Shown: positions 5,501-61,685 of the stretch, piece after piece | Layout of the letters: each line of letters opens with the position of its first letter | Numbering within the stretch: position 1 is the stretch's first letter | Source of the DNA: an uncultured Candidatus Micrarchaeota archaeon | GTDB lineage: Archaea > Micrarchaeota > Micrarchaeia > Anstonellales > Bilamarchaeaceae | DNA length: 64,000 nt | Assembly: GCA_963714085.1 (NCBI GenBank) | Contig: OY970229.1 | Location: 100,849-164,848, forward strand | Direction of reading: 5' to 3' | Position numbers and translations under genes: made by a program | Notes under the pieces: generated by a model | Seen by the model: only the letters and a program-made list of their open reading frames with translations | What the model was told of the DNA's origin: nothing | Database searches by the model: none

Positions 5501-6715
5501 GCCGGCACCGCGGTTGTAGTACGCGTTGATGTTCGTGAATTCGCTGCCGTCGGACTGGTTGGCGTAGATGCCGTCTTCGTATCTGGATATCCAGGGGCAG
5601 TTCTCCACCGTGACGTCTGTGAGGGGCCCGACCAGCAGGATGCCGTAGGTGGGGCCGCCGGTGCCGCCATTGGTGATGCTGTGGCCGTTGCAGTTGTAGA
5701 CGACGTCGGAGGCCGTGATCTCCACGCAGGCCGAGCCGGCGAGCGGAGACGCATCGTTCGGTTCACCGACGTAGTCCATGCCCTGGGTATAGGTGCCGCC
5801 CGAGCTGATGACCGGGCAGCCAACGGAGATTATGCCGCCCTGGAGTATGCCGTACTCGCCCGCCGGAGTGAAGTTCGTCAAGGCCAAAGTGTGCGAAGAT
5901 GTGTCCGGGGTCTCGTTCACCACGTACCAATACCCTCCGTAGAGACCGTTCCAGAGGCTGAGGTTGCTCTCGTTGTATCCTAAGGCTTCCGTGGCGGTCC
6001 AGCTCCATACTGCGCTGTCGATCGTCAGCGGGGGGGAGGCGTACAAATCGATGCGCACGAACTTCTGGATGAAAGACTCGCGGGGAGTCGGGGTATCATT
6101 GGCCATCCAGCTGATGGAGAAGCCTCCGACGTCGTTCAAGGTGTCGTTGACGCTCAGATTCGTGTAGTTCTCCATGGTGCCTGAAGGATTATCGAAGATC
6201 ATGCCGGATAGGCTGACCGAGAACGGGTTGCCGATATCGTCATGGACTATCAGGTCGTTGGTGTTGTTGGAGAAGTACTGGCCCTGCACCACGGTCTGGT
6301 CGGAGTCCTGTATATACAATCCGGTATTGGAATTGTTCATTGCTGCGTCATTGATCAGGCTGATGATTGCTGACTGGTAGACGAAGATGCCATTGGAGTA
6401 GCCGGAAATCCCCGGGCAGTTCTGTATCGTGACGTTGCTGACCTCCGAGGGGACCGCGATGCCGTAGGTGGTGCCGCCCGTGCCGTCATTTATTATGTAG
6501 TGGCCGTCGCAGTCTAAGACGACGTCAGAAGCCAAGATCTTCACGCAGGCCAAGCCGCCATCGGGCATCTCTGAAGCGCTGTTGGGGGCTCCGGTCAGGT
6601 CCGCCGTCAGCGTGTAAGAGTCAGAGGCGCTTATCACCTGGCAGCTTCCGATTCCGGTCGGGTACGATACGCCCATCAGGAGCAGGAACACCACGAGGAC
6701 AAAAATGGATTTCAT
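1..6715 (-). CDS. Giant secreted surface/adhesin-like protein, partial (C-terminus beyond position 1). Domain order: signal peptide, three NosD-like right-handed beta-helix modules each followed by a WSW-containing beta domain, then at least 10 tandem 80-aa HYR/Ig-like repeats.
   Basis: My own translation of the minus strand gives an uninterrupted frame from ATG at 6715..6713 (MKSIFVLVVFLLLMGVSYPTGIGSCQ...) to position 1, more than 2,230 aa. The motif C[VT][KE]I.ASDVV.[DN]C[DN]G[HY]SI.N.GTGG.TYGI recurs three times. Stretches of NNS/NNT beta-helix rungs (NosD/pectin-lyase-like) follow. The repeat unit ...TVNCNATDIYGNTANASFRVTENPG... is HYR-like. N-x-S/T sequons are abundant. It is absent from the supplied ORF track only because no stop lies inside the window. 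A TATA-like ATTAATAAAG sits about 25-35 nt upstream. Confidence 0.8.
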   Translation of the reverse strand, partial: MKSIFVLVVFLLLMGVSYPTGIGSCQVISASDSYTLTADLTGAPNSASEMPDGGLACVKILASDVVLDCDGHYIINDGTGGTTYGIAVPSEVSNVTIQNCPGISGYSNGIFVYQSAIISLINDAAMNNSNTGLYIQDSDQTVVQGQYFSNNTNDLIVHDDIGNPFSVSLSGMIFDNPSGTMENYTNLSVNDTLNDVGGFSISWMANDTPTPRESFIQKFVRIDLYASPPLTIDSAVWSWTATEALGYNESNLSLWNGLYGGYWYVVNETPDTSSHTLALTNFTPAGEYGILQGGIISVGCPVISSGGTYTQGMDYVGEPNDASPLAGSACVEITASDVVYNCNGHSITNGGTGGPTYGILLVGPLTDVTVENCPWISRYEDGIYANQSDGSEFTNINAYYNRGAGIVLDSSDSNALHGNDFSNNSFSNANGIYLNKSNNNRIYDNHLDYDSDYSIGLGGYNNDTDSSSNNVIYDNSIDHNNDYGIFFGFGSNNNTLYNNSVSNDSNIGLVLDTSSNNTIANNTFTNGGYSAIALYSSSDQNTLDDNSIYNNEDAIALDNSSQETISGNRVNNNSYGGIHSSSPPTDNTAIYNNDLDGNNLGIEITGSNNNITNNSCDNESYEGIGLSGGNNTLSNNSADNNGDDGIGLGGDNNTLYGNSADNNAWDGIGLYGGNNSLSNNSADNNGHTGITISGTNNSMDDNRATNNSHVGLSMGSDQTSVTGQYLSNNGYDLDVADYSGPPITINLSGIVFDNPTGSMENFTNLSINDIVNNGEEYAINWTANETAPPYQPFAQTFVNISALSPPVSIDSIVWSWTDGEANGYDQSTFQLWVYNSSGWTPLNVTPDLSSDTLALTDLSPGSDYGIFGNSTINCPVINESGTYTQDMNYTGAPNGAPELSGTVCVKIAASDVVFDCNGYSIANNGTAGTTFGIAINGSLTNVTVENCAGISGYYYGIYTGSLSGGDISNNSVYNDTDTCIASLGTGNVYSNNSVSQCFNGFYASGASASIFSGNTVYNDSYAGFRIESGASDNTFTDNVVLGNADYGFYLGGLANNNSFSGNNVSGGSEGFHLISCENNTFTGNNAYNNTLYGFAISCTNDTYLYNNAYNNTQYGFRLFDANGNTFIGNSAYNNTGSPGNPAYGMAIISQFGGSAGNQFWNTTLFRNDYDFYAYSNNGVTYNMANTTFLDPSGSMANTSLSINDSLAAGGESYTINWSRNSTALPASAPISFNKFVDIKNQSAGVSIDSVTWSWQDSELSGYNDTKFELWESDASGWTRLNNTPDTVADTLGFTGLIPSSTYGILQNNVTTIPTINLMFPPDAYITNSGSIDFAFNASDDYYPTLSCSLYLDGNLNQTNATTQNSTATDFPLLGIADGYHNWFINCTDLANETNFSETRSFTVDTIPPVISGISNITQTATNLTNNVTYSPTAKDEYNVSVPVICNPVSGSMFPIGNTTVNCNATDIYGNTANASFRVTENPGTTPPTISGISNINDTATNYTGSTETYSPTATDEYNVSVPVICNPVSGSMFPIGNTTVNCTATDIYGNQANESFNVTENPGTVAPIISGISNINDTATNYTGSTETYSPTAKDEYNVSVPVICNPVSGSMFPIGNTTVNCTATDIYGNQANESFNVTENPGTTPPTFSGISNINDTATNYTGSTETYSPTAKDEYNVSVPVLCTPVSGSLFPIGNTTVNCNATDIYGNTANASFRVTENPGTTPPTISGISNITQTATNLTNNVTYSPTATDEYNVSVPVICNPVSGSMFPIGNTTVNCNATDIYGNTANASFRVTENPGTTPPTISGISNITQTATNLTNNVTYSPTATDEYNVSVPVICNPVSGSMFPIGNTTVNCTATDIYGNQANESFNVTENPGTVAPIISGISNINDTATNYTGSTETYSPTAKDEYNVSVPVLCTPVSGSLFPIGNTTVNCNATDIYGNTANASFRVTENPGTTPPTISGISNITQTATNLTNNVTYSPTAKDEYNVSVPVLCTPVSGSLFPIGNTTVNCNATDIYGNTANASFRVTENPGTTPPTISGISNITNTATNLTNNVTYSPTAKDEYNVSVPVLCTPVSGSLFPIGNTTVNCNATDIYGNTANASFRVTENPGTTPPTISGISNINVTTATSNGTIETYAPTAKDEYNVSINVSCVPPSGSMFPIGTTPVNCSATDPYGNTANASFNVTVNPIIAPLTLSPSSVAQGQSLNGTITGLAPISPFGSVIISTTY

Positions 6716-27735: not shown

Positions 27736-27797
27736 GAATGTGTCAAAAGAAGGTAAGACATAATTTTATAAAAGGTTTTCAGCAATAGATAACGATG
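27736..27797 (+). promoter_or_regulatory. Conserved promoter/leader element with TATA box TTTTATAAAA about 22 nt upstream of the B1 ATG. It is repeated upstream of B2.
   Basis: gaatgtgtcaaaagaaggtaagacataattttataaaaggttttcagcaatagataacgATG is about 85% identical to 29062..29126. Confidence 0.55.
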
Positions 27798-29036
27798 GCA
27801 GAAGGACCAGTTCATTCACCTCCAATCGCAAGGCCGGCTGCGCCCAGGACGCTGTTGGATGTCGTCAAACGCCACGCGCCAGAGATCCACGAGCGCATCG
27901 CAGGGCCGAGAAATCCGGAACTTGATGCGCTCTCCTATATCGTGAAACGGGCCATGGCCTCCCAAAGCGAGGACGACCCCGCGCTGAGGTCGCAGATACA
28001 CTCGCTGCCGCCGGAATCCATCGCGACGATACTGCTCAAAGCATACCGGCCCAAAGAGAGCTACGCCATAATGATGAGCGGCCCGGAGATCATCGAGTTC
28101 ATCGCCCGCTGGAAAGGGGACGCGGAGAGCATCCCATCGCCCTGGCCCGCGTGGTTTATCCCGAGCCGGCCAGCTTGCGGGGAAACAAGACCCGGTTCTT
28201 TGCAGTCATTCGCGGAATTTGTGGAGAGATGGCATGCTGAACCGAAGCCCGGATGCGACGCGGACCCCGAGGTGGCGTCCTCCGAGTTTTCGGCTGTTTT
28301 CGCCAATGTCCTGAAAGGCGTGGAAAGCCTGGCCGCCAGGAACTCCGGACTGCTCGCGGGGCTGGCCGCGGACGCGTGCGAGTTCATCGCCTGCCTCCTG
28401 GCCACGCAGCCGGAAGCCGCGGCCGCACGTTTCGTGATTACGGACATGTTGATCGCGGATAAGCGCACCATCTCGGATATGCAGCCCGAGGGAACGTATG
28501 CCGACATCGGTTGCGGAATGAGCGGCGTCGCCTGCATGCATGCGCTGGACAGGCGGCTTGTGCTGGTCGACAATGACGCGCTGATGACCGGGATCCTCGC
28601 GTCATACGCGCGGAGGACGGGCAGGGGGAATGCGGAGGTCAGGAACACGGACATCACCTCGGGCACCTGCGATGAGGGCTCGTTGGGATTGGCGAACGTG
28701 GAATACGTGCTCCATTACCTGTCCGAGGGGCAGATAGTCGATGCGATACGCAATCTGGCCCCTGCGCTCGCGGACAACGGGCTGATGCACATATGGGAAC
28801 CCGAGGAAGGATGCTGCAGATTCGAGAGCCCGGAGAAGATAAACGCGATAAGAATGGGGCTGGCGGGGAGCGGCCTTTTTTTCTTTGAGAGGAGGATAGA
28901 ACTGCGTTCCATCTGGTCGCCCTTGGTCAGGTCGAAATGGGACGTCGAGTTCGTCGCCGCGAGGAGAAGGGAGGAGCTTGAGAGGGCGATGGCTGTGCGG
29001 GATTCGGCGTTGCAGTCGCAGGATCCGGATCCTTAG
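27795..29036 (+). CDS. Class-I SAM-dependent methyltransferase B1 with an N-terminal helical (dimerisation-like) domain
   Basis: YADIGCGMSGVACMHAL is motif I. LVLVDND is the motif II acidic loop. EYVLHYL is motif III. Confidence 0.6.
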   Translation: MAEGPVHSPPIARPAAPRTLLDVVKRHAPEIHERIAGPRNPELDALSYIVKRAMASQSEDDPALRSQIHSLPPESIATILLKAYRPKESYAIMMSGPEIIEFIARWKGDAESIPSPWPAWFIPSRPACGETRPGSLQSFAEFVERWHAEPKPGCDADPEVASSEFSAVFANVLKGVESLAARNSGLLAGLAADACEFIACLLATQPEAAAARFVITDMLIADKRTISDMQPEGTYADIGCGMSGVACMHALDRRLVLVDNDALMTGILASYARRTGRGNAEVRNTDITSGTCDEGSLGLANVEYVLHYLSEGQIVDAIRNLAPALADNGLMHIWEPEEGCCRFESPEKINAIRMGLAGSGLFFFERRIELRSIWSPLVRSKWDVEFVAARRREELERAMAVRDSALQSQDPDP

Positions 29037-29061: not shown

Positions 29062-29126
29062 ACCCGGACGATATGTGTCCAAAAACGGTAAGACATAATT
29101 TTATAAAAGGTTTCCGCCAATAGATG
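29062..29126 (+). promoter_or_regulatory. Second copy of the conserved TATA-containing promoter element (upstream of B2)
   Basis: gatatgtgtccaaaaacggtaagacataattttataaaaggtttccgccaatagatgataATG. Confidence 0.55.
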
Positions 29127-30287
29127 ATAATGGCGATCATACGCACTGCCCATTCCACTCCAGGCCCAGCGCAATCCAAGCCGGAAGCCGTCCGCGCACC
29201 GGGGATACTCGAGCCCATCATCGGGCAGAGGAGGCGGGGGCTGGACGAACTCTCCAGCGCGGTGAAGAGCGCCATCGCTTCCCAGCGCGGGGTGGATTCC
29301 ACACTGAGGGAGCAGATAGACTCGCTGTCTCCGGCATGCGTCGCAATGATCCTGCTCGGCACATACCGGCCCAGGGAGACTCATGAGCTTGGCATCAAAG
29401 ACCCGGAAGTCATGGCGTTCGTGGCTCGCTGGAAATGGGGCGGGGAGAGCGTCCAGCTGCCTCTGCCCCGGCTCGATGAGACTTCCGGTGAAGGGGACAT
29501 AGGAAAAGTTTTGGATTTCATCAAGGTCATGGCGGCAAAATCGGCTTTTTTCAACGAGGTCGTGGAAAGGATCGGAAAGCTGACCGCGAGGAACACCGGA
29601 CTCCTGAGGAGGATAGCCGCGGACGCTGGCGAGTTCCTCTCCTGTTTCCTGACAGAGCAGCCCGAAGCCGCTGGCTCGCAGTTCAGTTTCGAGGAGGTGT
29701 CGTTCGTGAACAAGCTGCGGATATCCTCCATACAGCCGGAAGGGGTTTTCGCGGACATCGGCTGCGGCGAGGACGGCCTCATCTGCGTGGACGTATTGGA
29801 CAGGCCGCTCCTGCTCACGGACAAGAACGCGCTGGTGACCGGGATGCTCGCGTCCTATTCGTCGAGACAGGGCAGGGAGGACGTGGACGTCAGGACCGAC
29901 GACATCGTTTCAACGTCGTACGAACCCGGCTCCCTGGGACTGATCAACATGCAGCTCGTGCTGCATTACCTTTCCGAAAGGCGGATAGCGCGTGCGATAG
30001 GCAACCTGGCCCCCGCGCTCGCGTACAACGGGCTGATGCACATAGTGGAACCGGAAGCGGGATGCTGCGGCTTTGACAGCCCTGGGAAGATAAGCGTGAT
30101 AAGGAGGGAGCTCAGAAGGCACGGCCTTTTCGTGGCTGAGGGGCTGATGGAAGAGAGGAACCACCCTTCGTGCCGGTTGGAAAAGCGGTCCATCGTGGAG
30201 ATCGTCGCCGCGAGGAGGGAGGAGGACTTCGGGAGAACCTCGGCCACCAGGGATCCGGACGGGTCCTGGAAGCTTGGCGAAAGTTAA
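29124..30287 (+). CDS. Class-I SAM-dependent methyltransferase B2 (paralogue of B1)
   Basis: FADIGCGEDGLICVDVL and LLLTDKN are present. It is collinear with B1 but strongly diverged. Confidence 0.6.
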   Translation: MIMAIIRTAHSTPGPAQSKPEAVRAPGILEPIIGQRRRGLDELSSAVKSAIASQRGVDSTLREQIDSLSPACVAMILLGTYRPRETHELGIKDPEVMAFVARWKWGGESVQLPLPRLDETSGEGDIGKVLDFIKVMAAKSAFFNEVVERIGKLTARNTGLLRRIAADAGEFLSCFLTEQPEAAGSQFSFEEVSFVNKLRISSIQPEGVFADIGCGEDGLICVDVLDRPLLLTDKNALVTGMLASYSSRQGREDVDVRTDDIVSTSYEPGSLGLINMQLVLHYLSERRIARAIGNLAPALAYNGLMHIVEPEAGCCGFDSPGKISVIRRELRRHGLFVAEGLMEERNHPSCRLEKRSIVEIVAARREEDFGRTSATRDPDGSWKLGES

Positions 30288-50977: not shown

Positions 50978-51748
50978 TTGCATGCTTATTCCATGAAACT
51001 GCTCAAACTGGGGGGCTCTGTGATAACCCGGAAGTCGGGATGGCGCGAGGCGGACCTCAAGGCGATAGAGGCGCTGGCGGACGTCGTGGCCTCGGCATGG
51101 AAGAAGTCCGAGCGCGACTGGGTGCTCGTGCACGGGGCAGGCTCGTTCGGCCACCCGCTGGTCGTCAAGTACGGCATCAACGACGGCGTGAAGAACGCTG
51201 CGCAGAAGCTCGGGTTCGCGATGACGCACGAGGCATGCTCGGAATTGTCCGTGCTCGTCGTCGGAACGCTCAACAGCGCCGGAATGCCCGCGGTGCCGGT
51301 TCCGCCCGCCATGGTGATAACCTCCAAGAACAGGCGCATACACTCATTCAACACGAAAGTGGTCGACGATTACCTGAAATCCGGGTACGTGCCAGTGCTT
51401 TTCGGGGACATGGTCCCCGACATAGAGCTCGGCGGCTCGGTGTGCTCCGGGGACCAGATAATATCCTACCTGGGCAAGGCTGCGGAGCGCATACTCCTAG
51501 CCACGAACGTGGACGGGGTGCTCGACGACAAGGGAAAGGTCATTGAGCAGATAACGGGCAGGAACTTCGCGGACGTCTCGCGGCATTTCAAGTCCGCGGA
51601 AGGCGACGTCACCGGGGCAATGGCAGGCAAGATAAAGGAATTGCTCGAGCTTGATACTCCTTCTTACGTGGTCAACGGGCTGAAGCCTGAGCGCGTGGAG
51701 GCGCTCATGCTCGGGAAGAGGGCGGTCTGCACCGAGATAAGGAAATGA
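50978..51748 (+). CDS. ipk: Isopentenyl phosphate kinase (amino-acid-kinase fold)
   Basis: LLKLGGSVIT (the glycine-rich loop) and VLVHGAGSFGHP. 256 aa. It is divergent from the ubiX operon. Confidence 0.8.
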   Translation: MHAYSMKLLKLGGSVITRKSGWREADLKAIEALADVVASAWKKSERDWVLVHGAGSFGHPLVVKYGINDGVKNAAQKLGFAMTHEACSELSVLVVGTLNSAGMPAVPVPPAMVITSKNRRIHSFNTKVVDDYLKSGYVPVLFGDMVPDIELGGSVCSGDQIISYLGKAAERILLATNVDGVLDDKGKVIEQITGRNFADVSRHFKSAEGDVTGAMAGKIKELLELDTPSYVVNGLKPERVEALMLGKRAVCTEIRK

Positions 51749-51787
51749 TGAACACAAAATGTAATCATTTATAAGATAATCCCATCA
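51713..51787 (+). repeat. 75-nt segment (last 12 codons of ipk plus a TATA-containing promoter) duplicated at 53149..53223 with 3 mismatches
   Basis: cgggaagagggcggtctgcaccgagataaggaaatgatgaacacaaaatgtaatcatttataagataatcccatca versus cgggaagaaggcggtctgcaccgggataaggaaatgacgaacacaaaatgtaatcatttataagataatcccatca. Confidence 0.9.
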
Positions 51788-51798
51788 TAACTTTTTTC

Positions 51799-53133
51799 AT
51801 GCCAGAGACAGCAACCGCCAGGGTTATTTTTGCGCCTAAGGCCAGCCGCGCTGTCCCGCCCAGGCGCTGCAAGCCGCATTTCTTCGCATGCCAGACAGAG
51901 GGCATACGCAAGCAGCCAAGGGGCGCCGGCAAAACCCGCAGGAAAGCCCTTCTGAACAGCGAGCTGGCAGGCCTCTGGGAGTTCGCTAAGAAGAGAAAGG
52001 CGACCATCTCGAAGAAAGAGGAGGCGGAGATGTTCGGGATATACCTGCGCGTGGTCAGGCGCATGCAGGAGCTGAAGCATCTGCGGGAAAGGTGGAACGG
52101 ACCCGTGAAACAGGAGCTCGTGCGCCTTTCCGAGGCGAAGGAGCTTGCGGAGAGGGTGGTCGCGAGCAGAGGGGACATGAGATACCTCAGGGAACTCGCT
52201 GCAGAGAAGAGGCGGTCGCTCGAGAAAGAGGAGGAATACGCCGTCTTCCGGATTTATAGGCGGGTGCTCCCCCGCATGATGAACCTCGGGAAGGGAGGCA
52301 TTGCAGCGAACGCGGAACACGGACTCGTGGCTCAGGAGATGGAGCGGCTTTCCGAGGCGAAAAGGCTTGCCGAGACCATAATCATCCAGACCATGGAAAA
52401 GCAGTTCTGGATGACAGCCAAATACGTGATCCACCCCTCGGTCATAGAAAAATCAGACCTCGTTCAGGAGGCCTGCATGGCTGTAGTAAGAAGAGCTATG
52501 CGCACCTTTGACCCTGACCAGGACTGCAGAATCTCCACGTACTGCCAGTTAGGGATAACGCGGGCCATGAAACGCGCGGTTCAGAATCAGGGGAAGACCA
52601 TCAGGATCCCGTGCAATACGTACACCATAAGCGCCAAGGTCAACAGAGCTTACATGGAATGCCGCAAATCTGGCTACGAGCCGACCGCGCAGGAGATAGC
52701 TGATCTTGCCGGACTCGACCTGAAGAAGGTCGTGAGATGCCTCGAAATGCCGGATACGCTCAGCATGGACGTTAGGCCAGAGGACAGGCTTGCATTAATC
52801 GATACGATTCCGGACAATGGCATGGATCCGCTGGAGACGCTTGTCAACGCTGAGGTGGGAAGCGTGGTGGAGACGCTCCTTGGGAAACTGAGGCCCGACC
52901 AGCGCAGGATATTGTGCATGAGGCAGGGCCTGGGCTGCAAAGAGCACACGTTGAAGGAGATCGCAGAAGTAGATGGATGCAGCGGCGAGAACATAAGGCA
53001 GAAGCTGTTCAAGATAGCGAGAAGGATACGCAATGCGAACAAGGCGCTGCTGCGCGAGTACCAGGGCTATGGCCCCGATGACGAAGCGCCATCCCATGAA
53101 CCCGGAGAGCAGGCCAGCGCCGGGCAGCGGTAG
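51799..53133 (+). CDS. Bacterial-type sigma-70 family protein (regions 2, 3 and 4 present) with a novel N-terminal extension of about 200 aa containing two internal repeats
   Basis: DLVQEACMAVVRRAMRTFDPDQDCRISTYCQLGITRAMKRAVQNQGKTIRIP is region 2.1-2.4 including the RTIRIP box. SGYEPTAQEIADLAGLDLKKV is region 3.0. LRPDQRRILCMRQGLGCKEHTLKEIAEVDGCSGENIRQKLFKIARRIR is region 4. The conserved WW of region 2.3 is replaced (YCQLGITR). Confidence 0.8.
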   Translation: MPETATARVIFAPKASRAVPPRRCKPHFFACQTEGIRKQPRGAGKTRRKALLNSELAGLWEFAKKRKATISKKEEAEMFGIYLRVVRRMQELKHLRERWNGPVKQELVRLSEAKELAERVVASRGDMRYLRELAAEKRRSLEKEEEYAVFRIYRRVLPRMMNLGKGGIAANAEHGLVAQEMERLSEAKRLAETIIIQTMEKQFWMTAKYVIHPSVIEKSDLVQEACMAVVRRAMRTFDPDQDCRISTYCQLGITRAMKRAVQNQGKTIRIPCNTYTISAKVNRAYMECRKSGYEPTAQEIADLAGLDLKKVVRCLEMPDTLSMDVRPEDRLALIDTIPDNGMDPLETLVNAEVGSVVETLLGKLRPDQRRILCMRQGLGCKEHTLKEIAEVDGCSGENIRQKLFKIARRIRNANKALLREYQGYGPDDEAPSHEPGEQASAGQR

Positions 53134-53148
53134 CCTGCCATCATGCCC

Positions 53149-53223
53149 GGGAAGAAGGCGGTCTGCACCGGGATAAGGAAATGACGAACACAAAATGTAA
53201 TCATTTATAAGATAATCCCATCA
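53149..53223 (+). repeat. Second copy of the 75-nt ipk-3'-end/promoter element
   Basis: See 51713..51787. It encodes a remnant ...GKKAVCTGIRK* of the ipk C-terminus. Confidence 0.9.
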
Positions 53224-53234
53224 AATGAATTCTC

Positions 53235-54578
53235 ATGCTCGCAGCAGAAACGGCCAGGCGCACTCATATCCAATCAGCCGGCACGGCCCGTCCTGGACGC
53301 AAAGCATTGAGGCTCGTCGCGTGCGAGACGGAGACGATCCGCAAGCATCCAGCCAACATCAACGGGGCCCGCGGGAAGCCGCTGTCTGCGAAGGAGATGA
53401 GATACCTCGAAAGGCTCGCTGCAGAAAGGAAGGAGGTCATCGGGAAAAAGGATGAGGCCGAGGTATCCGCGATATACCTGCGCGTGGTCTGGCGCATGGA
53501 GGAGCTGCAGGCGAAGCGGGCCACCAGGGCCGTGAGACTCGAACTCGAGCAGCTCTCCAATGCCAAGGGGCTTGCCGAGGGAATGGTCGTGAACGAGGCC
53601 GAGCTGCGGCAGCTCCGGGAAATCGCGGCGGAGAGGGCCAAGACGCTCGAGCCAGGAGTGGAACGGTACATCTGCACCATCTATCGGCGCGTGCACCCCC
53701 GCCTCATGAGTCTCAAGGAGGTCAACGAGGCGCAGAAAAAGATACCCGGGCAGCAGGGCTGCAAGGCCGAAAAGGAGCCCGGGCTCATCGAACGGGAGAT
53801 CAAACGGCTCGCAGAGCCGAAGAGGCTTGTCGAGGATATAGTCACCACCGGGTTGAACGCGTTATTCTATGACAGGGCCCGGCGCATCTTAAGGTACCCT
53901 GATTCCATAGAGCGGTGCGATCTCGTCAATGAAACCAAGATTGCTGTCATAAATAACGTCATGCCCCGTTTTGATCCGACCCTCGGTTACAGGCTGTCCA
54001 CGTACTGCAACTTGCCGATGAACCGGGTCATGGTACGCTACGTACAGACTCATAAGAGGGATATCAGGTGGCCGGTCTACATATGCGAGGCGATAGGCAG
54101 GTTGAGCAAGGCTTCGCAACTGCGCCGGAACCTGGAAGGCAGGGAACAGAGCATCGAAGAAATAAGGAAAACCACGGATCTCCCCCCGAGCGTGATCGCA
54201 GCGTGCATGAGAGCGCCGCAAACGGTCAGCCTGAGCGAAAAGCTGCGCCACGGTGAAGGGAAGAAGCGGATCGACCGTATCGAGGATACAAGCAGCGTGA
54301 ATCCGCTGGACGCGGTTTTCGATAGCAAAGCGAAGGATCTGGTGAACGAGTGCCTCGACGTACTCAGCCCGAGGTATGCGAGGATAATGCGCATGAGATA
54401 CGGCCAGGACCAGACGCTCGACGCGATCGCTGACCGGGAGGGCATATCAAGAGAGAGGGTGAGGCAGATACTGGCCAAAGCCTTGAGGACGCTGCGCAGG
54501 AAGAATAGGATGAAGCTGTGCGATTTCTACGGGGGCAAACCGCCCTGTTACGACCAGCAGGCTAATCTTGAGATGTAG
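53235..54578 (+). CDS. Second sigma-70 family paralogue (more divergent), with the same N-terminal repeat architecture
   Basis: DLVNETKIAVINNVMPRFDPTLGYRLSTYCNLPMNRVMVRYVQTHKRDIRWPVY is region 2. LSPRYARIMRMRYGQDQTLDAIADREGISRERVRQILAKALRTLRR is a canonical region 4.2 HTH. Confidence 0.8.
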   Translation: MLAAETARRTHIQSAGTARPGRKALRLVACETETIRKHPANINGARGKPLSAKEMRYLERLAAERKEVIGKKDEAEVSAIYLRVVWRMEELQAKRATRAVRLELEQLSNAKGLAEGMVVNEAELRQLREIAAERAKTLEPGVERYICTIYRRVHPRLMSLKEVNEAQKKIPGQQGCKAEKEPGLIEREIKRLAEPKRLVEDIVTTGLNALFYDRARRILRYPDSIERCDLVNETKIAVINNVMPRFDPTLGYRLSTYCNLPMNRVMVRYVQTHKRDIRWPVYICEAIGRLSKASQLRRNLEGREQSIEEIRKTTDLPPSVIAACMRAPQTVSLSEKLRHGEGKKRIDRIEDTSSVNPLDAVFDSKAKDLVNECLDVLSPRYARIMRMRYGQDQTLDAIADREGISRERVRQILAKALRTLRRKNRMKLCDFYGGKPPCYDQQANLEM

Positions 54579-54640: not shown

Positions 54641-55306
54641 ATGAACAAAAAGGCGCTCGCGTCCATGGGCTGGATAATCCGGACCATGAGCACCGAAGCC
54701 GGAAAAAGAAATCCTCCGGTCAACAAGGTGGACAGGATAACCCGCAGCAGCCCGTTCCGCGCGCTCGTCTTCACGATCCTTTCAGCGAGGACGAAGGACG
54801 CGAACACCATCGCCGCGGCGGGAAGGCTGCTCGAAAAAGCACCGACCCCGAAAGCGCTCGCGCGCATGCAGATAAAGAAAATAGAAAAACTCGTGCATTC
54901 TTCCGGATTCTACAGGATGAAGGCCAGGAACCTCTCCGCCATGGCGAAGATGCTTCTGACGGATTTCAACGGCAAGGTCCCGTCCGATATCGAGAGCCTG
55001 GTGCGCCTGCCGGGCGTAGGAAGGAAGACCGCTAACATCTTATTGGTCTATTCCTTCGGCAAGGACGCCATTCCGGTGGACACCCACGTGCACAGGATAA
55101 GCAATAGGCTGGGCATAGTGAGAACGAAGACGCCGGAGAAAACGGAGAAGGCGCTCATGTCCGCGGTCCCGAAGAGGCTCTGGAAACCGCTAAACCACGC
55201 GTTCGTGTCCTACGGCCAGACCATATGCCTGCCCAGGAACCCGAAGTGCAGGGAGTGCAAACTGAACAGGGTATGCTGGAGAATCGGCGTGCGCTCCGGT
55301 ATATAA
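54641..55306 (+). CDS. nth: Endonuclease III-type DNA glycosylase/AP lyase (HhH-GPD with 4Fe-4S loop)
   Basis: LPGVGRKTANILL is the HhH. The C-terminus is C-x6-C-x2-C-x5-C (CLPRNPKCRECKLNRVC). Confidence 0.85.
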   Translation: MNKKALASMGWIIRTMSTEAGKRNPPVNKVDRITRSSPFRALVFTILSARTKDANTIAAAGRLLEKAPTPKALARMQIKKIEKLVHSSGFYRMKARNLSAMAKMLLTDFNGKVPSDIESLVRLPGVGRKTANILLVYSFGKDAIPVDTHVHRISNRLGIVRTKTPEKTEKALMSAVPKRLWKPLNHAFVSYGQTICLPRNPKCRECKLNRVCWRIGVRSGI

Positions 55307-55460: not shown

Positions 55461-56570
55461 TCACGGAAGGCAGTTTATCGGCGGCATCTTTCGCGCCGGC
55501 TCGAACGAGTCCCCGATCAAGCCTGCGAACACCCGGGCACCTTTGATTTCGACGCTACGGAGAACCGAAACCAATGGCGCATCGGCCGGGTTCTTCGGAT
55601 TCTCCGCGATCCGCTCTATGCCGCGGGCGAAGAGCTCGTTCTCGTATATCCCGTTCAGCTGGGCCCGCAGGGACGCGAGCTCCTCCAGAGGCAGCTCAGG
55701 CACGGAGACCTCGGAGCCGAGGGAGCCGATCAGCCGCTTGAATTCCCGGAGGCCGCCCAGGACGCCATCGATATTCCCCATGGTGGAATCGACGTATCCC
55801 TTGAAATCCACCGAAGGGTCCGGCTTGTCGATCTCGGCGTCGAGGGCCTTGGTGGATTCGTTCCAGGCCATCAGAAGGTTGCCGGTCCGGACCAGGACCA
55901 CGGCGCAGGATCGCAATGTTCTGGCATCCATGGACTCGCCACCGGAGTCGTCTATGGCGTCCATGCGCTCTTTTACCTTATCGTGCGAATCGAAGAAGGC
56001 GCGGATCAGCCGGCCTTCGATTTCCATGGAGCTCTTCATGAACACGGAGAACGTGTCGAACAGATACCCTTCGAAGACCAGCTCAGACGTGGCGCTGGGC
56101 GTGGTCCTGTCCAGGGCTTGGGCAGCACGCTTCCGGTCGTCGCATCCCATGCGCTCCCAGAGGTAGTGACCCACCTCATGGTCCACGGCGCTGTTTAAGA
56201 TGCGTTGGTCGTAGGTTATCTCGAAAGACGCGACCCGGCCGTCATCCTTGAAGCTGATCCGTCCCTCTAAAGACTGGAGCTTTCTGAGGTAAGCGGCCTC
56301 GGGCTCAGGCATGCGTCTCAAAATGGAGTCCGAAACCGCCCTCGGGACCAGGGAGACGGCGGGTATGGCGTCCGCCACCGGCTGGGGCCATCGCCCAAGC
56401 TCGCGCTCCACCGAGCCGCCGCGGCGTATGCCCTCGCACCGGGCATGCAGGGTCCCGAGCTCCTCCCTGATGGACCTTCTCTCCGCCATTATCGAAAGGC
56501 ATTCGCGGGTCGCGGTAGCGGTAAGCGCCGTGATGGCGACTGCTGCGATGATGCGATTGCGCGGCTTCAT
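55461..56570 (-). CDS. Secreted putative zinc metallopeptidase (HExxH)
   Basis: Signal peptide MKPRNRIIAAVAITALTATA. AVDHEVGHYLWERMGCDD carries HEVGH. Confidence 0.45.
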   Translation of the reverse strand: MKPRNRIIAAVAITALTATATRECLSIMAERRSIREELGTLHARCEGIRRGGSVERELGRWPQPVADAIPAVSLVPRAVSDSILRRMPEPEAAYLRKLQSLEGRISFKDDGRVASFEITYDQRILNSAVDHEVGHYLWERMGCDDRKRAAQALDRTTPSATSELVFEGYLFDTFSVFMKSSMEIEGRLIRAFFDSHDKVKERMDAIDDSGGESMDARTLRSCAVVLVRTGNLLMAWNESTKALDAEIDKPDPSVDFKGYVDSTMGNIDGVLGGLREFKRLIGSLGSEVSVPELPLEELASLRAQLNGIYENELFARGIERIAENPKNPADAPLVSVLRSVEIKGARVFAGLIGDSFEPARKMPPINCLP

Positions 56571-59453: not shown

Positions 59454-60011
59454 ATGAAAACACTGGCCATAAAGCGTGATCCGTTCAAAGCGCCCAAGGG
59501 GATGGAGAGCGTATACGCGATCGTGCGCCAGCAGCAGAAGCGCGAGATGCTGCGCCTCGAGCCCGAGGCGCGCCTCGAATGCGCGCTGGCGGAGAGGCAG
59601 CTTGGAGACGCGGCGGCGGCAGAGCGGAAAAGCGCCGCGAAGACCCTCGGGAAGCTGCGTTATCTGCATTCTTTCGAGCCGCTCCTGCATGCCCTCGCAA
59701 GAGAAAACGCGCCGGGCGACGAAGGCCGGGCGGTGAAGGCCGCCATGCTCAAGGCCCTCCGGAACATCGGTTCCGACCATTGCTGCCATATTGCGCTGGA
59801 GGTCGGGCGCGTGCCGCTCAGGGACTTCGCCATGGCGCACCTGGACGACCACGTGCTCGTGGGAAGCGCCCTCAATGCACTGGCATCGACCTGCTTGAGG
59901 TGCGAATCGCTCGCGGACATGGAAAAAGTCATGAAGGCCGCGGATGAGAAAGGATATAGAGAGACCGGTATCGCGGCGGGCAGCATCTGGCTCGATACTT
60001 TGAGAGACTGA
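59454..60011 (+). CDS. HEAT/PBS-lyase-like repeat protein (paralogue 1 of 3)
   Basis: Repeats of the form ERKSAAKTLGKLRYLHSFEPLLHALARENAPGDEGRAVKAAMLKALRNIGSDH. A conserved upstream leader is present (see finding). Confidence 0.6.
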   Translation: MKTLAIKRDPFKAPKGMESVYAIVRQQQKREMLRLEPEARLECALAERQLGDAAAAERKSAAKTLGKLRYLHSFEPLLHALARENAPGDEGRAVKAAMLKALRNIGSDHCCHIALEVGRVPLRDFAMAHLDDHVLVGSALNALASTCLRCESLADMEKVMKAADEKGYRETGIAAGSIWLDTLRD

Positions 60012-60016
60012 TACCT

Positions 60017-61057
60017 ATGCCAACTTCATCCTTCAGACATCCCGGGCCCAAATCCCCTCCACCGATCGGATTGGAGCGCGAGCGCGCGATCCTGCGCTAT
60101 GCGCACGAGCGGGAGATGTGCCGGCTCCAGGGCCGGAACGGGATCTTGCAGGTCCGGGCGCAGAACAGGCTGTGGAGCGGAGTGGCGGCAGCGCGGAAGA
60201 GCGCCGCCAGGATCCTCGGGCGCCTGCGTTTCATCTATTCCTACGAGCCGCTCGTACAAGCCCTCGCCCGCGAATGCAAGTCCGGCGACGAAGGCAGCGC
60301 AGTGAAGGCCGCGATGCTGAAAAGCCTTGACAAGATCGGCTCCGAGCACTGCGGCCAGAAGACGCTCACTACCGGGCGCGAGCCGCTCAACGAGTTCATC
60401 ATGGCGCACCTGGACGACCACGTGCTCGTGAGAGCCGCCCTCAAGGCGTTGAGATGGACCGGCTCATTCGACGATACGATCCAGGACACGCGCAGTATCG
60501 AGGAGGCGGCCAGGGCTGCAGGATACGAAAAGAGCGCCGGTGTCGCGAGCAAGATCTATCTCGGCCGGATAGAGGCTGGGGCTGAGCTCACCCGGGCAGA
60601 GGCGGAGGTTTTACTTAGAAGCGCCGTGGCGGCAGAACGGAAGCGCGCCGCGAACAACCTCGGGCGACTGCATGATCTCCGTTCCTACCAACCGCTGCTC
60701 AATGCCCTTGCCCAGGAAAGCGGGCCCGCCTTCGGAAACCGGGAGGTGAAGGCCGCCATACTGGAAGCGCTTGAGAGCATCGGCGGAGAGCACGCCGGCC
60801 AGGCGGCGCTCGGTGCAGGGCGTGAGCCGCTCAAGAGGTTCAGCATGGCGCACCTGGACGACGCCGGACTGGTGAGGGCCGCCTTGGAAGCGTCGGGATG
60901 GACGGTTTCCATCACGGGGGACGCGATCCACGACCTGGACGAGGTCAAGGAAGCGGCGAGAAGCGCTGCAGCCAAAGGTGGCCCAGATGCGGAAAAATAC
61001 AGGGCGACTGCCACTGAGGCAACAGATATCTATTTCGACTGGATAAGATCCCGCTGA
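60017..61057 (+). CDS. HEAT/PBS-lyase-like repeat protein (paralogue 2; two tandem units)
   Basis: Unit 1 is RKSAARILGRLRFIYSYEPLVQALARECKSGDEGSAVKAAMLKSLDKIGSEH. Unit 2 is RKRAANNLGRLHDLRSYQPLLNALAQESGPAFGNREVKAAILEALESIGGEH. It starts 5 nt after paralogue 1. Confidence 0.6.
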   Translation: MPTSSFRHPGPKSPPPIGLERERAILRYAHEREMCRLQGRNGILQVRAQNRLWSGVAAARKSAARILGRLRFIYSYEPLVQALARECKSGDEGSAVKAAMLKSLDKIGSEHCGQKTLTTGREPLNEFIMAHLDDHVLVRAALKALRWTGSFDDTIQDTRSIEEAARAAGYEKSAGVASKIYLGRIEAGAELTRAEAEVLLRSAVAAERKRAANNLGRLHDLRSYQPLLNALAQESGPAFGNREVKAAILEALESIGGEHAGQAALGAGREPLKRFSMAHLDDAGLVRAALEASGWTVSITGDAIHDLDEVKEAARSAAAKGGPDAEKYRATATEATDIYFDWIRSR

Positions 61058-61133
61058 GACGCCCCGGGGCTTGGCCCGTCAAGAACGCAAGGTATTTAAA
61101 CACCAAAAGCCATAATAACATACGTGATAATGA

Positions 61134-61685
61134 ATGGGACAGGTAGCCGTCAAACGTCGTGAATCCAGAACGCCGCCTCCTGAAGGATTGGCGCGCGCGA
61201 TTCTGCGCGCACAACAAGAGCGGCAGCTGCGGCGCCTGGAGCCCGATGCGGGAGTTCAACGTGCCGGGGCCGAGAGCCTGCTGAAAGAAGGCACGACTGC
61301 GCAAAGGATAAGCGCCGCGGCCAGCCTCGGGAATCTGCGTTTTCTCTGCTCTTTCGAGCCCCTGCTCAATGCCCTCGCACGCGAAAGCGAACCTGGCTTC
61401 GGAGACCGGAGGGTGAAAACCGCCATACTCCAGGCTCTTGATAATGTCGGTTCCGAGCACGCCGGCCAGACGGCGCTCAGGACAGGGCATGAGCAGCTCA
61501 GGGGATTCATCAATGCGCATCTGTCCGACCCTGAACTCGTGGGAAAGGCCATGAAGGCGTTGGCATGGACTGGCAACAGGGCGGAGTCTATCCACGACGC
61601 GGACGACATCAAAAAGGCGGCTAGGAAGGCCGGATATAAAAGTACCGCCAGTGCGGCGAGCGCCGCCTATTTCAGCAGGATATGA
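61134..61685 (+). CDS. HEAT/PBS-lyase-like repeat protein (paralogue 3)
   Basis: QRISAAASLGNLRFLCSFEPLLNALARESEPGFGDRRVKTAILQALDNVGSEH. It is preceded by a second copy of the leader element. Confidence 0.6.
   Translation: MGQVAVKRRESRTPPPEGLARAILRAQQERQLRRLEPDAGVQRAGAESLLKEGTTAQRISAAASLGNLRFLCSFEPLLNALARESEPGFGDRRVKTAILQALDNVGSEHAGQTALRTGHEQLRGFINAHLSDPELVGKAMKALAWTGNRAESIHDADDIKKAARKAGYKSTASAASAAYFSRI

Follow-up and report, generated by a model that had tools for sequence, protein, structure and literature searches.

A young 83-nt repeat between two older sigma-70-like genes of a Candidatus Micrarchaeota archaeon overlaps a conserved block of their gene family

Results

The window analyzed here is a stretch of 64,000 nucleotides (64 kb) of contig OY970229.1 from an uncultured Candidatus Micrarchaeota archaeon (GenBank assembly GCA_963714085.1, positions 100,849 to 164,848 of the forward strand). 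Archaeal markers in it are ABCE1/RLI (719 bits against a cutoff of 469), the isopentenyl phosphate kinase IPPK_Arch, UbiD/UbiX and mevalonate kinase (MVK); an AcnX-like dehydratase is also encoded, and the Pfam AcnX domain was matched on its counterpart in the P0109 contigs described below. The ipk gene for isopentenyl phosphate kinase (50993..51748, + strand) matches the NCBIfam equivalog IPPK_Arch with 206.5 bits against a cutoff of 120, as well as Pfam AA_kinase, and is followed by two genes for sigma-70-like proteins: sigma-1 (51799..53133, +, 444 aa), with Pfam Sigma70_r2, r3 and r4 above threshold and 59 bits for TIGR02937, and its paralogue sigma-2 (53235..54578, +, 447 aa), with Sigma70_r4 as the only Pfam sigma domain above threshold and 79 bits for TIGR02937, whose cutoff is 42.9. 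These matches bear out the gene names given in the original prediction. The right edge of the slot that holds the pair is nth, for endonuclease III (54641..55306, +), which has Pfam HhH-GPD above threshold and 196 bits for TIGR01083, below the 211.7-bit cutoff; the other neighbors are UbiD, UbiX, a 369-aa protein with no Pfam match, and MVK.

The sigma2-sigma4 domains of sigma-1 lie in its C-terminal half, and its N-terminal extension of ~200 aa is family-specific and contains two internal repeats. Sigma-2 aligns with the HrdB/SigA structures over regions 2-4 (E about 1e-25); its predicted structure, from a 3-sequence alignment, has a mean pLDDT of 48.5, too low for a fold search. When 1.84 billion cluster representatives were searched exhaustively with a profile, ~10 family members were recovered, and the only matches of the family profile to genome contigs were two bacterial (Acidimicrobiia) sigma genes. 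Proteins of the family are 41-55% identical where the neighboring housekeeping genes are 84-96% identical; sigma-2 is 55% identical to its orthologue SigL, the single sigma of a relative (L002/L011), while ipk is 89% identical between the two organisms, and dN/dS is about 0.6. Region 2.3 of sigma-70 contains an aromatic motif, Y-x-x-W-W, that serves the melting of the -10 element; it is lost in both proteins of the window (YCQLG in sigma-1, YCNLP in sigma-2), kept in SigL, P0106, P0107 and P0113, and present as FAMWW in P0111. Loss of the motif was considered as a character uniting sigma-1 with sigma-2 and was rejected: P0108, the second sigma of L009, has lost it too, and the tree described below puts sigma-1 outside.

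An ipk..nth slot holding sigma genes is also found in L011 and in the P0109 contigs. The latter, compared as gene maps only, have the order AcnX-UbiD-UbiX-ipk-sigma-sigma-(337 aa)-nth-40 aa-MVK, which is the synteny of the window with two sigmas in the slot. The nearest relative (the organism of L002, L006 and L011), which is the one close relative with which the locus was compared at the DNA level, has one sigma after ipk, and no orthologue of sigma-1 was found in it. That this organism lacks nth was also considered and rejected: its 500-kb contig L011 reads ipk-sigL-X-nth-MVK, with an unrelated gene X between. Sigma arrays occur in L007, L009 and L010 as well, and the close relatives L008 and L009 differ in their sigma counts, and the sigmas that occupy the same slot in the two are deeply diverged, with a four-fold p of 0.51-0.54 versus 0.26-0.40 in the flanking genes.

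Pairwise alignment shows that the 83 nt at 51705-51787 recur at 53141-53223 with 4 mismatches, which fall at 51711, 51720, 51735 and 51749 of the first copy; the longest stretch free of mismatches spans 38 nt (51750-51787), and a repeat search of the window pairs 51705-51822 with 53141-53258 (118 nt, 86% identity, spacing 1436). The 37-mer 51751-51787 has exactly 2 occurrences in the window even with 3 mismatches allowed (0 expected in shuffles), and none of the 14-mers of the boundary was found elsewhere within the 64 kb. Since the ipk stop codon lies at 51746-51748, the repeat consists of 44 nt of ipk tail and 39 nt of intergenic, putative promoter sequence, which in copy A (51705..51787, +) are 51705-51748 and a core at 51749-51787. 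Copy B begins 7 nt past the sigma-1 stop, inside the sigma-1/sigma-2 spacer, with a non-coding fossil of the ipk 3' end (53141..53184, +; hereafter the ex-ipk tail) that differs from the real tail at 3 of 44 nt. The novel joint, read from the sequence, is the sigma-1 stop and the 7 nt CCTGCCA (53134..53140, +) fused to the last 44 nt of ipk. A 75-nt repeat with 3 mismatches had been predicted, and this is what is found at 51713-51787; the predicted pseudo-ORF remnant (..GKKAVCTGIRK and a stop) can likewise be read in copy B.

The repeat opens two adjoining units, 51705-53140 and 53141-~54590, which are homologous end to end in direct orientation. Their proteins are 37% identical and their codon-aligned coding sequences 55% identical at the nucleotide level, with NG86 estimates of dN 0.63 and dS 0.91, versus the 4 mismatches in 83 nt of the flanks; the sigma proteins are thus, as predicted, far more diverged than the sequence that flanks them. 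The boundary scored 67 in a permutation test that covered the full alignment of the two units (1387 sites, with 55% identity outside the boundary), where the permutations averaged 13.8 and reached 42 at most (P<2e-4). This supports the original view of a tandem-duplication junction whose boundary is better preserved than its genes. The 83-nt repeat is the joint between the two units of a tandem sigma-70-like pair in the ipk..nth slot. A second candidate conversion tract at 52038-52074 (37 nt, 2 mismatches, P<2e-4) was set aside as ambiguous, because 19 nt of it are also identical in L002 and a Met codon is common with P0108.

It is scarcely credible that the arrangement is an artefact, a mis-join or collapsed repeat. 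Assemblers do break at the 38-nt perfect core, and contigs of the Logan assembly of run ERR11594402 end there; but one of these, of 1458 nt, equals window 51758-53215: one of its ends holds the leader of copy A and the other the ex-ipk variants of copy B, and it breaks off within the perfect core on both sides. A second (L005), judged by its gene coordinates, starts within the core of copy B near window 53194, so that both junctions exist beyond the deposited assembly. The misassembly that the original prediction had allowed for is therefore not supported: an independent assembly joins sigma-1 to the copy-B ex-ipk variant, the copies differ at 4 positions between unique flanks, 83 nt is shorter than ordinary reads, and both ORFs are intact.

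The right 39 nt of the repeat are the upstream part of a ~61-nt block, here called block P, that stands before both genes (copy A, 51750..51810, +, 62.6 bits with profile R1; copy B, 53186..53246, +, 70.9 bits). It runs from CACAAA..T through a variable stretch at the BRE position, the TATA-like octamer TTTATAAG, AAT.C.ATCA and an 11-nt variable leader to the ATG, and the octamer (51768-51775 and 53204-53211) lies 31 nt ahead of each sigma ATG, at -31..-24. This position agrees with the general TATA pattern of the genome as seen in the 64-kb window, where, counted from the start codons, a TATA-like hexamer falls within -38..-20 for 21 of 34 genes and the highest AT content, 0.78, is reached at -30..-26. 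Neither a bacterial-type promoter (-35/-10 pair) nor a terminator was found in the boundary. From these sequence features we infer that block P likely gives each paralogue the same archaeal leaderless promoter, and it probably holds a candidate site for a shared regulator.

Matches of 59-71 bits to profile R1 precede sigma-1, sigma-2, sigL of L002/L011, the P0106 gene of L008 and both sigmas of L009, which makes 6 instances in 4 organisms, four of them in three archaeal organisms besides that of the window, and the block is kept despite the 32-43% identity of those proteins to the two sigmas of the window. Beyond these, the profile scores at most 6 bits anywhere in the window and at most 8 bits in the 58 kb searched at other loci; no second copy was found in L011 with this profile, and none before non-sigma genes in about 140 kb (the window plus ~80 kb of related loci). 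In some relatives the gene upstream of the block is PGM/PMM, not ipk, and in these PGM-linked loci the sequence upstream of P is unrelated. Block P goes with the gene family, not with the locus; nearly every family member carries it, and it is maintained by purifying selection. Neither this family specificity nor the archaeal host was noticed in the original prediction. A metagenome search returned the orthologous locus of the relative only, and viral contigs searched with a specific and a degenerate core gave no match. Across window, related loci, metagenome and viral contigs, the further copies that the original prediction had suggested looking for next to other cargo genes came to light solely ahead of sigma-family genes, and a generic promoter on many unrelated genes is not seen there.

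The 38-column core of the block has 24 invariant and 14 variable columns across the six instances; every other pair differs at 4-10 columns (the two L009 blocks at 9), whereas copies A and B are identical across all 38. These columns bear on the possibility that purifying selection alone explains the repeat, with both 83-nt copies old and each held unchanged as promoter or operator, which we consider very unlikely. The 24 invariant positions, in four organisms whose sigma proteins are about 33% identical, do speak for constraint, as does an inverted repeat in the ipk-derived part, CTCGG-N17-CCGAG at 51710..51736 in copy A and CCCGG-N17-CCGGG at 53146-53172 in copy B: two of the three copy-B-specific changes keep its 5-bp arms, so that 2 of the 4 A/B differences preserve pairing (chance of such a compensatory pair 1.3-2.7%, assessed post hoc). 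However, L002 does not conserve the inverted repeat. An RNA element in the boundary was considered as well and rejected, with no Rfam match (best E 0.33, unrelated) and RNA-folding z-scores of -0.77 to +0.13. The real ipk tails of the window and L002 differ at 7 of 44 positions, mostly synonymous sites, and the tail is therefore unconstrained at the nucleotide level; that the PGM-linked loci have an unrelated sequence ahead of P likewise argues against selection over the whole 83 nt. Constraint on the promoter, one of the causes originally put forward, is thus real but partial: it does not suffice, because A and B agree at 14 positions that vary elsewhere and the ex-ipk tail is nearly intact, and for the same reasons another of those causes, a recent homogenization or re-copying of the boundary, is still needed.

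The age of the boundary can be set against that of the genes by counting which two of three sequences agree at each site. The 83 nt differ between the window and L002 at 13-15 positions, and with L for the relative the boundary patterns A=B!=L, B=L!=A and A=L!=B number 12, 1 and 3; the 11-nt leader gives 0, 4 and 2 in the same order, and the coding sequences give 108 (sigma-1 = sigma-2), 312 (sigma-2 = sigL) and 127 (sigma-1 = sigL). The boundary and coding patterns differ with Fisher P = 1.3e-6 (one related species): the boundary groups as ((A,B),relative) and the genes as (sigma-1,(sigma-2,relative)), the latter in agreement with a neighbor-joining tree in which (sigma-2, P0105, SigL) has 100% bootstrap and sigma-1 lies outside. 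Since 108 is close to 127, the split of the paralogues must be at least as old as that of the species, a result independent of the rate of sigma-1. Divergence at four-fold sites is 0.375+-0.054 for sigma-1/sigma-2, 0.264+-0.040 for sigma-2/sigL and 0.361 for a housekeeping pool. Four-fold sites alone separate the ages modestly. The NG86 dS values, 0.91 vs 0.52, were rejected as a measure of the age gap, which they overstate, and the rate-independent pattern test was used instead for that reason. For the ex-ipk tail, neutral divergence of 0.26-0.375 predicts 12-17 differences in 44 nt, against the 3 observed (P = 1e-3 to 3e-6); it is young, and too intact for neutral decay. All 83 nt, freely varying positions included, go back in both copies to an ancestor that postdates the divergence of the nearest sequenced relative, and the sigma-1 and sigma-2 coding sequences split from each other at or before that divergence.

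These ages make it highly improbable that the whole 1436-nt unit was duplicated recently and that one coding sequence then diverged extremely fast. The family does evolve quickly at the protein level, as the figures for sigma-2/SigL and ipk given above illustrate, but the synonymous divergence of sigma-1 from sigma-2 is at least that between the species, the patterns that number 108 and 127 should stand at roughly 5-6 to 1 if the duplication were no older than the boundary, and identity changes abruptly at 51787/51788 rather than declining gradually. The site-pattern test rules out a recent whole-unit duplication of this kind.

Discussion

The history that we favor, at roughly an even chance, is that of a tandem pair older than its present junction: once the nearest sequenced relative had branched off, recombination with its anchor in block P would have re-copied that junction. 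Sigma-1 and sigma-2 would already have been neighbors before the event; recombination anchored in the always-similar P blocks would then have copied the ipk tail and P from before sigma-1 to before sigma-2, by gene conversion or by break repair templated on copy A, with the copied tract stopping sharply where the leaders diverge, at 51787/51788. The lineage of the relative would have lost sigma-1, which P-P recombination would remove scar-free. The pair is probably old and in place, given the synteny of the P0109 contigs with their two sigmas and the arrays in L007, L009 and L010; that the ancestral slot held two sigmas is drawn from the P0109 gene maps, because the sole relative compared at the DNA level has a single one. 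Evidence against this history comes from the tandem pair of L009, whose P blocks are not homogenized (9/38 differences) and in which no obvious remnant of the upstream gene was seen by eye, so that conversion is not a regular feature of sigma arrays. The left end of the tract, in non-homologous sequence, requires either that an old remnant of ipk already lay there or that the end was joined illegitimately, and the P0109 sigmas are not demonstrably orthologues of sigma-1 and sigma-2; both observations weigh against the favored history.

A rather unlikely alternative is that sigma-1 was copy-inserted recently into ipk-P-sigma-2. Sigma-1 would here be an old paralogue from elsewhere with its own P, and a template switch or recombination inside P would have copied in its leader, the gene and 7 nt before a return 44 nt inside ipk, duplicating the 83 nt that lie from one switch point to the other. 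This needs one event rather than two, takes the single sigma of the relative as ancestral, fits with the failure to find a sigma-1 orthologue in the L002 organism, and accounts equally well for a right edge that is sharp and coincides with the end of P homology, for the youth of the 83 nt and for the old divergence of the coding sequences; the differences between L008 and L009 in the number of old, diverged sigmas in one slot show that turnover at P blocks happens. Against it, the P0109 contigs, from another lineage, have two sigmas in the ipk..nth slot and tandem arrays are usual in the family; a donor copy of sigma-1 is not known; and the GC3 of sigma-1 is like that of its neighbors (0.74 vs 0.76), so that nothing flags it as an arrival. 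The use of the element as a recombination target, the remaining cause in the original prediction, fits the data, since the sigmas behind it are not the same, in identity or in number, from one close relative to the next; a dedicated cassette system or other cargo, however, was not seen.

Interparalogue gene conversion of part of a unit is the basis of concerted evolution, as described for the duplicated tuf genes of bacteria and for many tandem families in eukaryotes. The pair described here resembles these in being head-to-tail paralogues with one segment significantly more alike than the rest and sharply bordered, and in that the tract groups by genome and the remainder by orthology (one related species). 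Unlike typical conversion tracts, this one is 83 nt long, lies in the 5' flank rather than in the coding sequence, takes in a fragment of the unrelated gene upstream, and has as its anchor a promoter block that selection holds similar across the family. Bacterial ECF sigma factor genes have family-specific promoter motifs upstream and are autoregulated; block P is likewise a motif directly ahead of the genes of one sigma-like family across genomes, but it is centered on an archaeal TATA-like box at -31 with a predicted leaderless start instead of a -35/-10 pair, and, unlike an ECF regulon motif, it was not found at other genes, either in the window or in about 80 kb from related loci.

Sigma-70 homologues have been described in DPANN archaea that use TBP/TFB/TFE, with no evident anti-sigma partner (Castelle et al. 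2021, PMC8204110). The proteins of the window are likewise sigma-70-family proteins encoded in an archaeal genome, again with no anti-sigma partner in evidence; they differ from those homologues in the subfamily's ~200-aa N-terminal extension, tandem arrays and conserved promoter block, and in the loss of Y-x-x-W-W from both copies. As with integron cassettes, direct repeats surround a gene that is present in the window and absent in a close relative, but no integrase or recombinase was seen among the neighboring genes and, in contrast to integron sites, the repeat is a putative promoter linked to one gene family and not a recombination site common to unrelated cargo.

As a scar the joint is unremarkable, of the kind that textbooks describe for tandem duplication and recombination. 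It is useful for dating: it has ~1/4 of the age of the split from the nearest sequenced relative, and the genes are at least as old as that split. Of greater interest is what emerged alongside it, the combination of a conserved promoter block with variable sigma-like arrays, in a family that is unusual on three counts, namely that tandem arrays are usual in it, that its proteins evolve fast, and that its ~61-nt block is nearly unchanged from organism to organism. An element so tied to sigma-like genes offers a concrete candidate binding site, as judged from sequence, in cells that initiate transcription with TBP/TFB. As an unlikely, speculative extension, block P might be the operator or recognition site of the sigma-like proteins themselves (autoregulation) and also, because selection holds it alike in every copy, a portable homology that drives gain, loss and replacement, and so hypervariable arrays; the hints are different old paralogues in the same slot, the dN/dS of about 0.6 and the loss of DNA-melting residues in some members. 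If this were true, the arrays would be under diversifying selection, and the ex-ipk scrap would be one visible scar of their turnover.

A duplicated junction between diverged sigma-like genes

A repeat marks the two boundaries of the tandem sigma-70-like genes sigma-1 and sigma-2, which lie between ipk (isopentenyl phosphate kinase) and nth (endonuclease III). A repeat search pairs 51705-51822 with 53141-53258 (118 nt, 86% identity, spacing 1436), and pairwise alignment gives the high-identity part as 83 nt, 51705-51787 (copy A, before sigma-1) against 53141-53223 (copy B, before sigma-2), with four mismatches, at 51711, 51720, 51735 and 51749, and a longest perfect run of 38 nt. The 75-nt repeat of the original prediction is real, and three of the four mismatches fall in it; the sigma proteins are indeed far more diverged than their boundary, with 37% protein identity against 4 mismatches in 83 nt. 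Since ipk ends with its stop codon at 51746-51748, copy A comprises 44 nt of ipk coding tail and 39 nt of spacer; copy B is non-coding and begins 7 nt past the sigma-1 stop. The 37-mer at 51751-51787 has just two occurrences in the window at up to 3 mismatches, with none expected by chance, and in a permutation test on the whole unit alignment the boundary scores 67 against a permutation mean of 13.8 and maximum of 42. Nothing suggests a mis-join: in the independent Logan assembly of run ERR11594402, one contig corresponds to window 51758-53215 and carries copy-specific variants at both ends, and a second starts at about 53194, within the copy-B core (position computed from its gene coordinates).

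Coding sequence and boundary have different ages

The sole close homologue from another organism is found in L002, L006 and L011, at least three independent assemblies of one organism, with gene order UbiD-UbiX-ipk-sigL-X-nth-40 aa-MVK (MVK, mevalonate kinase) and one sigma gene, sigL. X (L011 11444-12751), which has a promoter of its own, encodes an unrelated repeat protein of 435 aa with three ~90-aa repeats (YPWE..TP..RVAA..W..WKT), present in L011 only and absent from the window; conversely, a 369-aa protein without Pfam match between nth and MVK (55461-56570, minus strand) is in the window only and absent from L011.

Pooled housekeeping genes of the two organisms show 84-94% protein identity and a four-fold-site divergence of 0.361 (277/767 sites). 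The corresponding values are 55% and 0.264 for sigma-2 versus sigL, 40% and 0.429 for sigma-1 versus sigL, and 37% and 0.375 for sigma-1 versus sigma-2, which identifies sigL as the orthologue of sigma-2. Because the four-fold gaps are modest, we used three-way site patterns, a test independent of the sigma-1 rate. In the coding sequence, sigma-1 and sigma-2 agree against sigL at 108 sites, sigma-2 and sigL against sigma-1 at 312, and sigma-1 and sigL against sigma-2 at 127; the near equality of 108 and 127 is what a sigma-1 branch at least as old as the species split should produce, and a coding duplication as young as the boundary is rejected, since the two counts would then stand at about 5-6 to 1. 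In the 83-nt boundary the same classes number 12 (A=B), 1 (B=relative) and 3 (A=relative), and in the 11-nt leader after it 0, 4 and 2. Coding sequence and boundary thus have opposite topologies (Fisher P = 1.3e-6), with a sharp switch at 51787/51788, and a neighbour-joining tree including more distant family members groups sigma-2, the family protein P0105 and sigL without sigma-1 at 100% bootstrap. On this evidence the sigma-1 and sigma-2 coding sequences predate the species split, and the whole 83 nt is younger.

The ipk tails of window and L002 have 7 differences in 44 nt, mostly synonymous; copy B differs from copy A at just 3 of the 44 although it is non-coding, where neutral divergence of 0.26-0.375 would predict 12-17 differences (P = 1e-3 to 3e-6). 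Polarised against L002, three changes were gained by copy B and one by copy A, placing the 83-nt ancestor at roughly a quarter of the age of the species split. The ipk scrap in copy B is most likely functionless. It contains an inverted repeat (51710-51736 in copy A, 53146-53172 in copy B) whose 5-bp arms change from CTCGG-N17-CCGAG to CCCGG-N17-CCGGG, T:A to C:G, so that two of the four A/B differences preserve the pairing; two of the three copy-B-specific changes are the partners of this one base pair, a coincidence with a chance of 1.3-2.7% that was noticed post hoc, and the inverted repeat is not conserved in L002.

A putative promoter block linked to the sigma-like family

An exhaustive profile search of 1.84 billion cluster representatives returned about ten proteins that carry the N-terminal extension of sigma-1 and sigma-2, and genomic contexts were obtained for several. 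Contigs L008 and L009 have phosphoglucomutase (PGM) in place of ipk as the upstream gene, and their sigma proteins share 32-43% identity with those of the window; despite this, the sequence before the sigma genes is nearly the window core (GAACACAAAATGTAATCATTTATAAGATAATCCCATCA in copies A and B, AATCACAAAATATAATCATTTATAAAATAATCCCATCA in L008). L008 and copy B also agree in every one of the first four codons and in AATG, the four leader bases adjoining the core. Sequence 5' of the block is unrelated in PGM-linked loci, and the ipk-tail half is specific to its locus. Six instances match R1, a profile of the 61-nt block, at 59-71 bits; the best remaining hits reach 6 bits (window) and 8 bits (58 kb of other loci), which links the element to this gene family. 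L011, 21 kb long, yields no further copy, and the block is absent from the viral contigs scanned. The possibility of a generic promoter carried by many genes is countered by this 6-8-bit background, the block not being found before other genes in ~140 kb.

Constraint on the boundary, one of the explanations originally proposed, holds for the promoter half, where 24 of 38 core columns are invariant family-wide and the 14 variable ones lie mainly at the BRE position and just past the TATA-like box. It fails to account for the identity of copies A and B at all 38 columns and for the near-intact ipk scrap; other block pairs differ at 4-10 of 38 (9 within the L009 tandem pair, 6 between the close relatives L008 and L009a). 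On these comparisons constraint alone is insufficient.

A TATA-like hexamer lies 20-38 nt before the start codon in 21 of the 34 window genes with their own upstream spacer, and AT content peaks at 0.78 at -30 to -26, the pattern of archaeal promoters that give leaderless messages. Both sigma genes fit the element sizes given in a review (BRE, 3-5 bp; TATA, 7-8 bp), with TTTATAAG beginning 31 nt before each ATG. We infer that the paralogues receive the same leaderless archaeal promoter, which makes it probable that sigma-1 and sigma-2 are expressed together.

Elsewhere in this genome, too, promoter blocks have outlasted coding similarity. A second tandem paralogue pair (27795-29036 and 29124-30287; proteins just 46% identical, four-fold divergence 0.40; a weak methyltransferase domain in one) has in common ~60 nt of promoter and leader (27738-27799 and 29067-29135, ~88% identity), including a perfect core of 28 nt, GGTAAGACATAATTTTATAAAAGGTTT. 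Three adjacent paralogous genes at 59454-61685 (family D3, 67-73% nucleotide identity, HEAT/PBS-lyase-like repeats in the middle gene) include a first and third with similar upstream regions and a TATA-like box at about -39. Separately, tandem repeats of families D1, D2 and D4, 237-240 nt and 66 nt in length, form long arrays in 1-6600, mostly on the minus strand, probably within at least one very large repetitive surface protein running off the window start.

Sigma-like proteins in an archaeal setting

The upstream gene is confirmed as isopentenyl phosphate kinase (NCBIfam IPPK_Arch, 206 bits versus a cutoff of 120), and its neighbours include archaeal mevalonate-route genes, for a UbiD-family decarboxylase, a UbiX-family prenyltransferase and mevalonate kinase, along with an AcnX-like dehydratase (Pfam AcnX on its counterpart at another locus); the window also encodes ABCE1/RLI (719 bits versus 469). 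Sigma-70 homologues have been reported from DPANN archaea, with no known function (PMC8204110). In sigma-1 and sigma-2 the sigma-70-like part is the C-terminal half: Pfam finds r2, r3 and r4 in sigma-1 and r4 in sigma-2, TIGR02937 is above its cutoff in both, and sigma-2 matches HrdB/SigA structures at E about 1e-25. The family-specific N-terminal extension has no Pfam match, and its AlphaFold model is all-helical at low confidence. Each extension contains two internal repeats (52097-52153 and 52319-52375; 53524-53580 and 53779-53835) with motifs IY(L/R)RV..R and E..RL(S/A)EAK.LAE, spaced 74-85 residues. A 37-nt coding patch (52038-52074 and 53471-53507; IYLRVV.RM.EL) has just 2 mismatches between sigma-1 and sigma-2, and 19 nt of it, including synonymous positions, are identical in the relative as well; either a short conversion tract or nucleotide-level constraint could account for it.

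Bacterial sigma factors melt the -10 element with the region 2.3 motif Y-x-x-W-W. This is replaced by YCQLG in sigma-1 (~52534-52554) and YCNLP in sigma-2 (~53994-54014) and is also lost in P0105 and P0108, the second sigma of L009; it is retained in sigL, P0106, P0107 and P0113, and P0111 has FAMWW. Placed on the tree, the losses would be independent.

Arrays, turnover and the history of the pair

The family is usually found as tandem arrays. L007 has two sigma-like genes (1027-2586), the second 10 nt downstream of the first and without its own promoter; L010 has at least three (1-2077) with a unit length of 1151 nt; the units are most alike at the joints, where identity reaches 0.9, and the L010 promoter-like element overlaps the preceding gene's last codons (..PLNATINK*). 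In a further lineage, the P0109 contigs repeat the window's synteny: AcnX-UbiD-UbiX-ipk, two sigma genes, a 337-aa gene, nth, a 40-aa gene and MVK.

Given this two-sigma synteny and the prevalence of arrays, we favour an old pair that has always occupied the ipk..nth slot. Recombination anchored in ever-similar promoter blocks would have re-copied the ipk tail and block from copy A to copy B, and later recombination joining the relative's two blocks would have scarlessly deleted sigma-1 there. Against this, P0109 was compared by gene map, its sigmas cannot be assigned as orthologues of sigma-1 and sigma-2, and the blocks of the L009 pair are not homogenised. A one-sigma ancestor that recently received a copy of sigma-1 also fits: the copying would have switched within the block and come back inside ipk, duplicating the 83 nt between these two points. 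This second history is supported by turnover in the PGM..Prs slot, which holds one sigma gene in L008 (6001-7305) and two in L009 (657-1982 and 2078-3289). These contigs are as close as window and L002 (Prs 96%, GGR 94%; housekeeping proteins 88-96% identical), and their sigmas have four-fold divergence of 0.51-0.54, near saturation, versus 0.26-0.40 for flanking genes, so different old paralogues occupy the slot.

Whether it arose by in-place re-copying, as we prefer, or by insertion, the scar is nothing unusual for tandem duplication and recombination, and the original finding was correct and soundly framed. Its interest lies in the gene family to which it belongs: the conserved stretches flanking the TATA-like box suggest a shared regulator, for which the sigma-like proteins themselves are one candidate.
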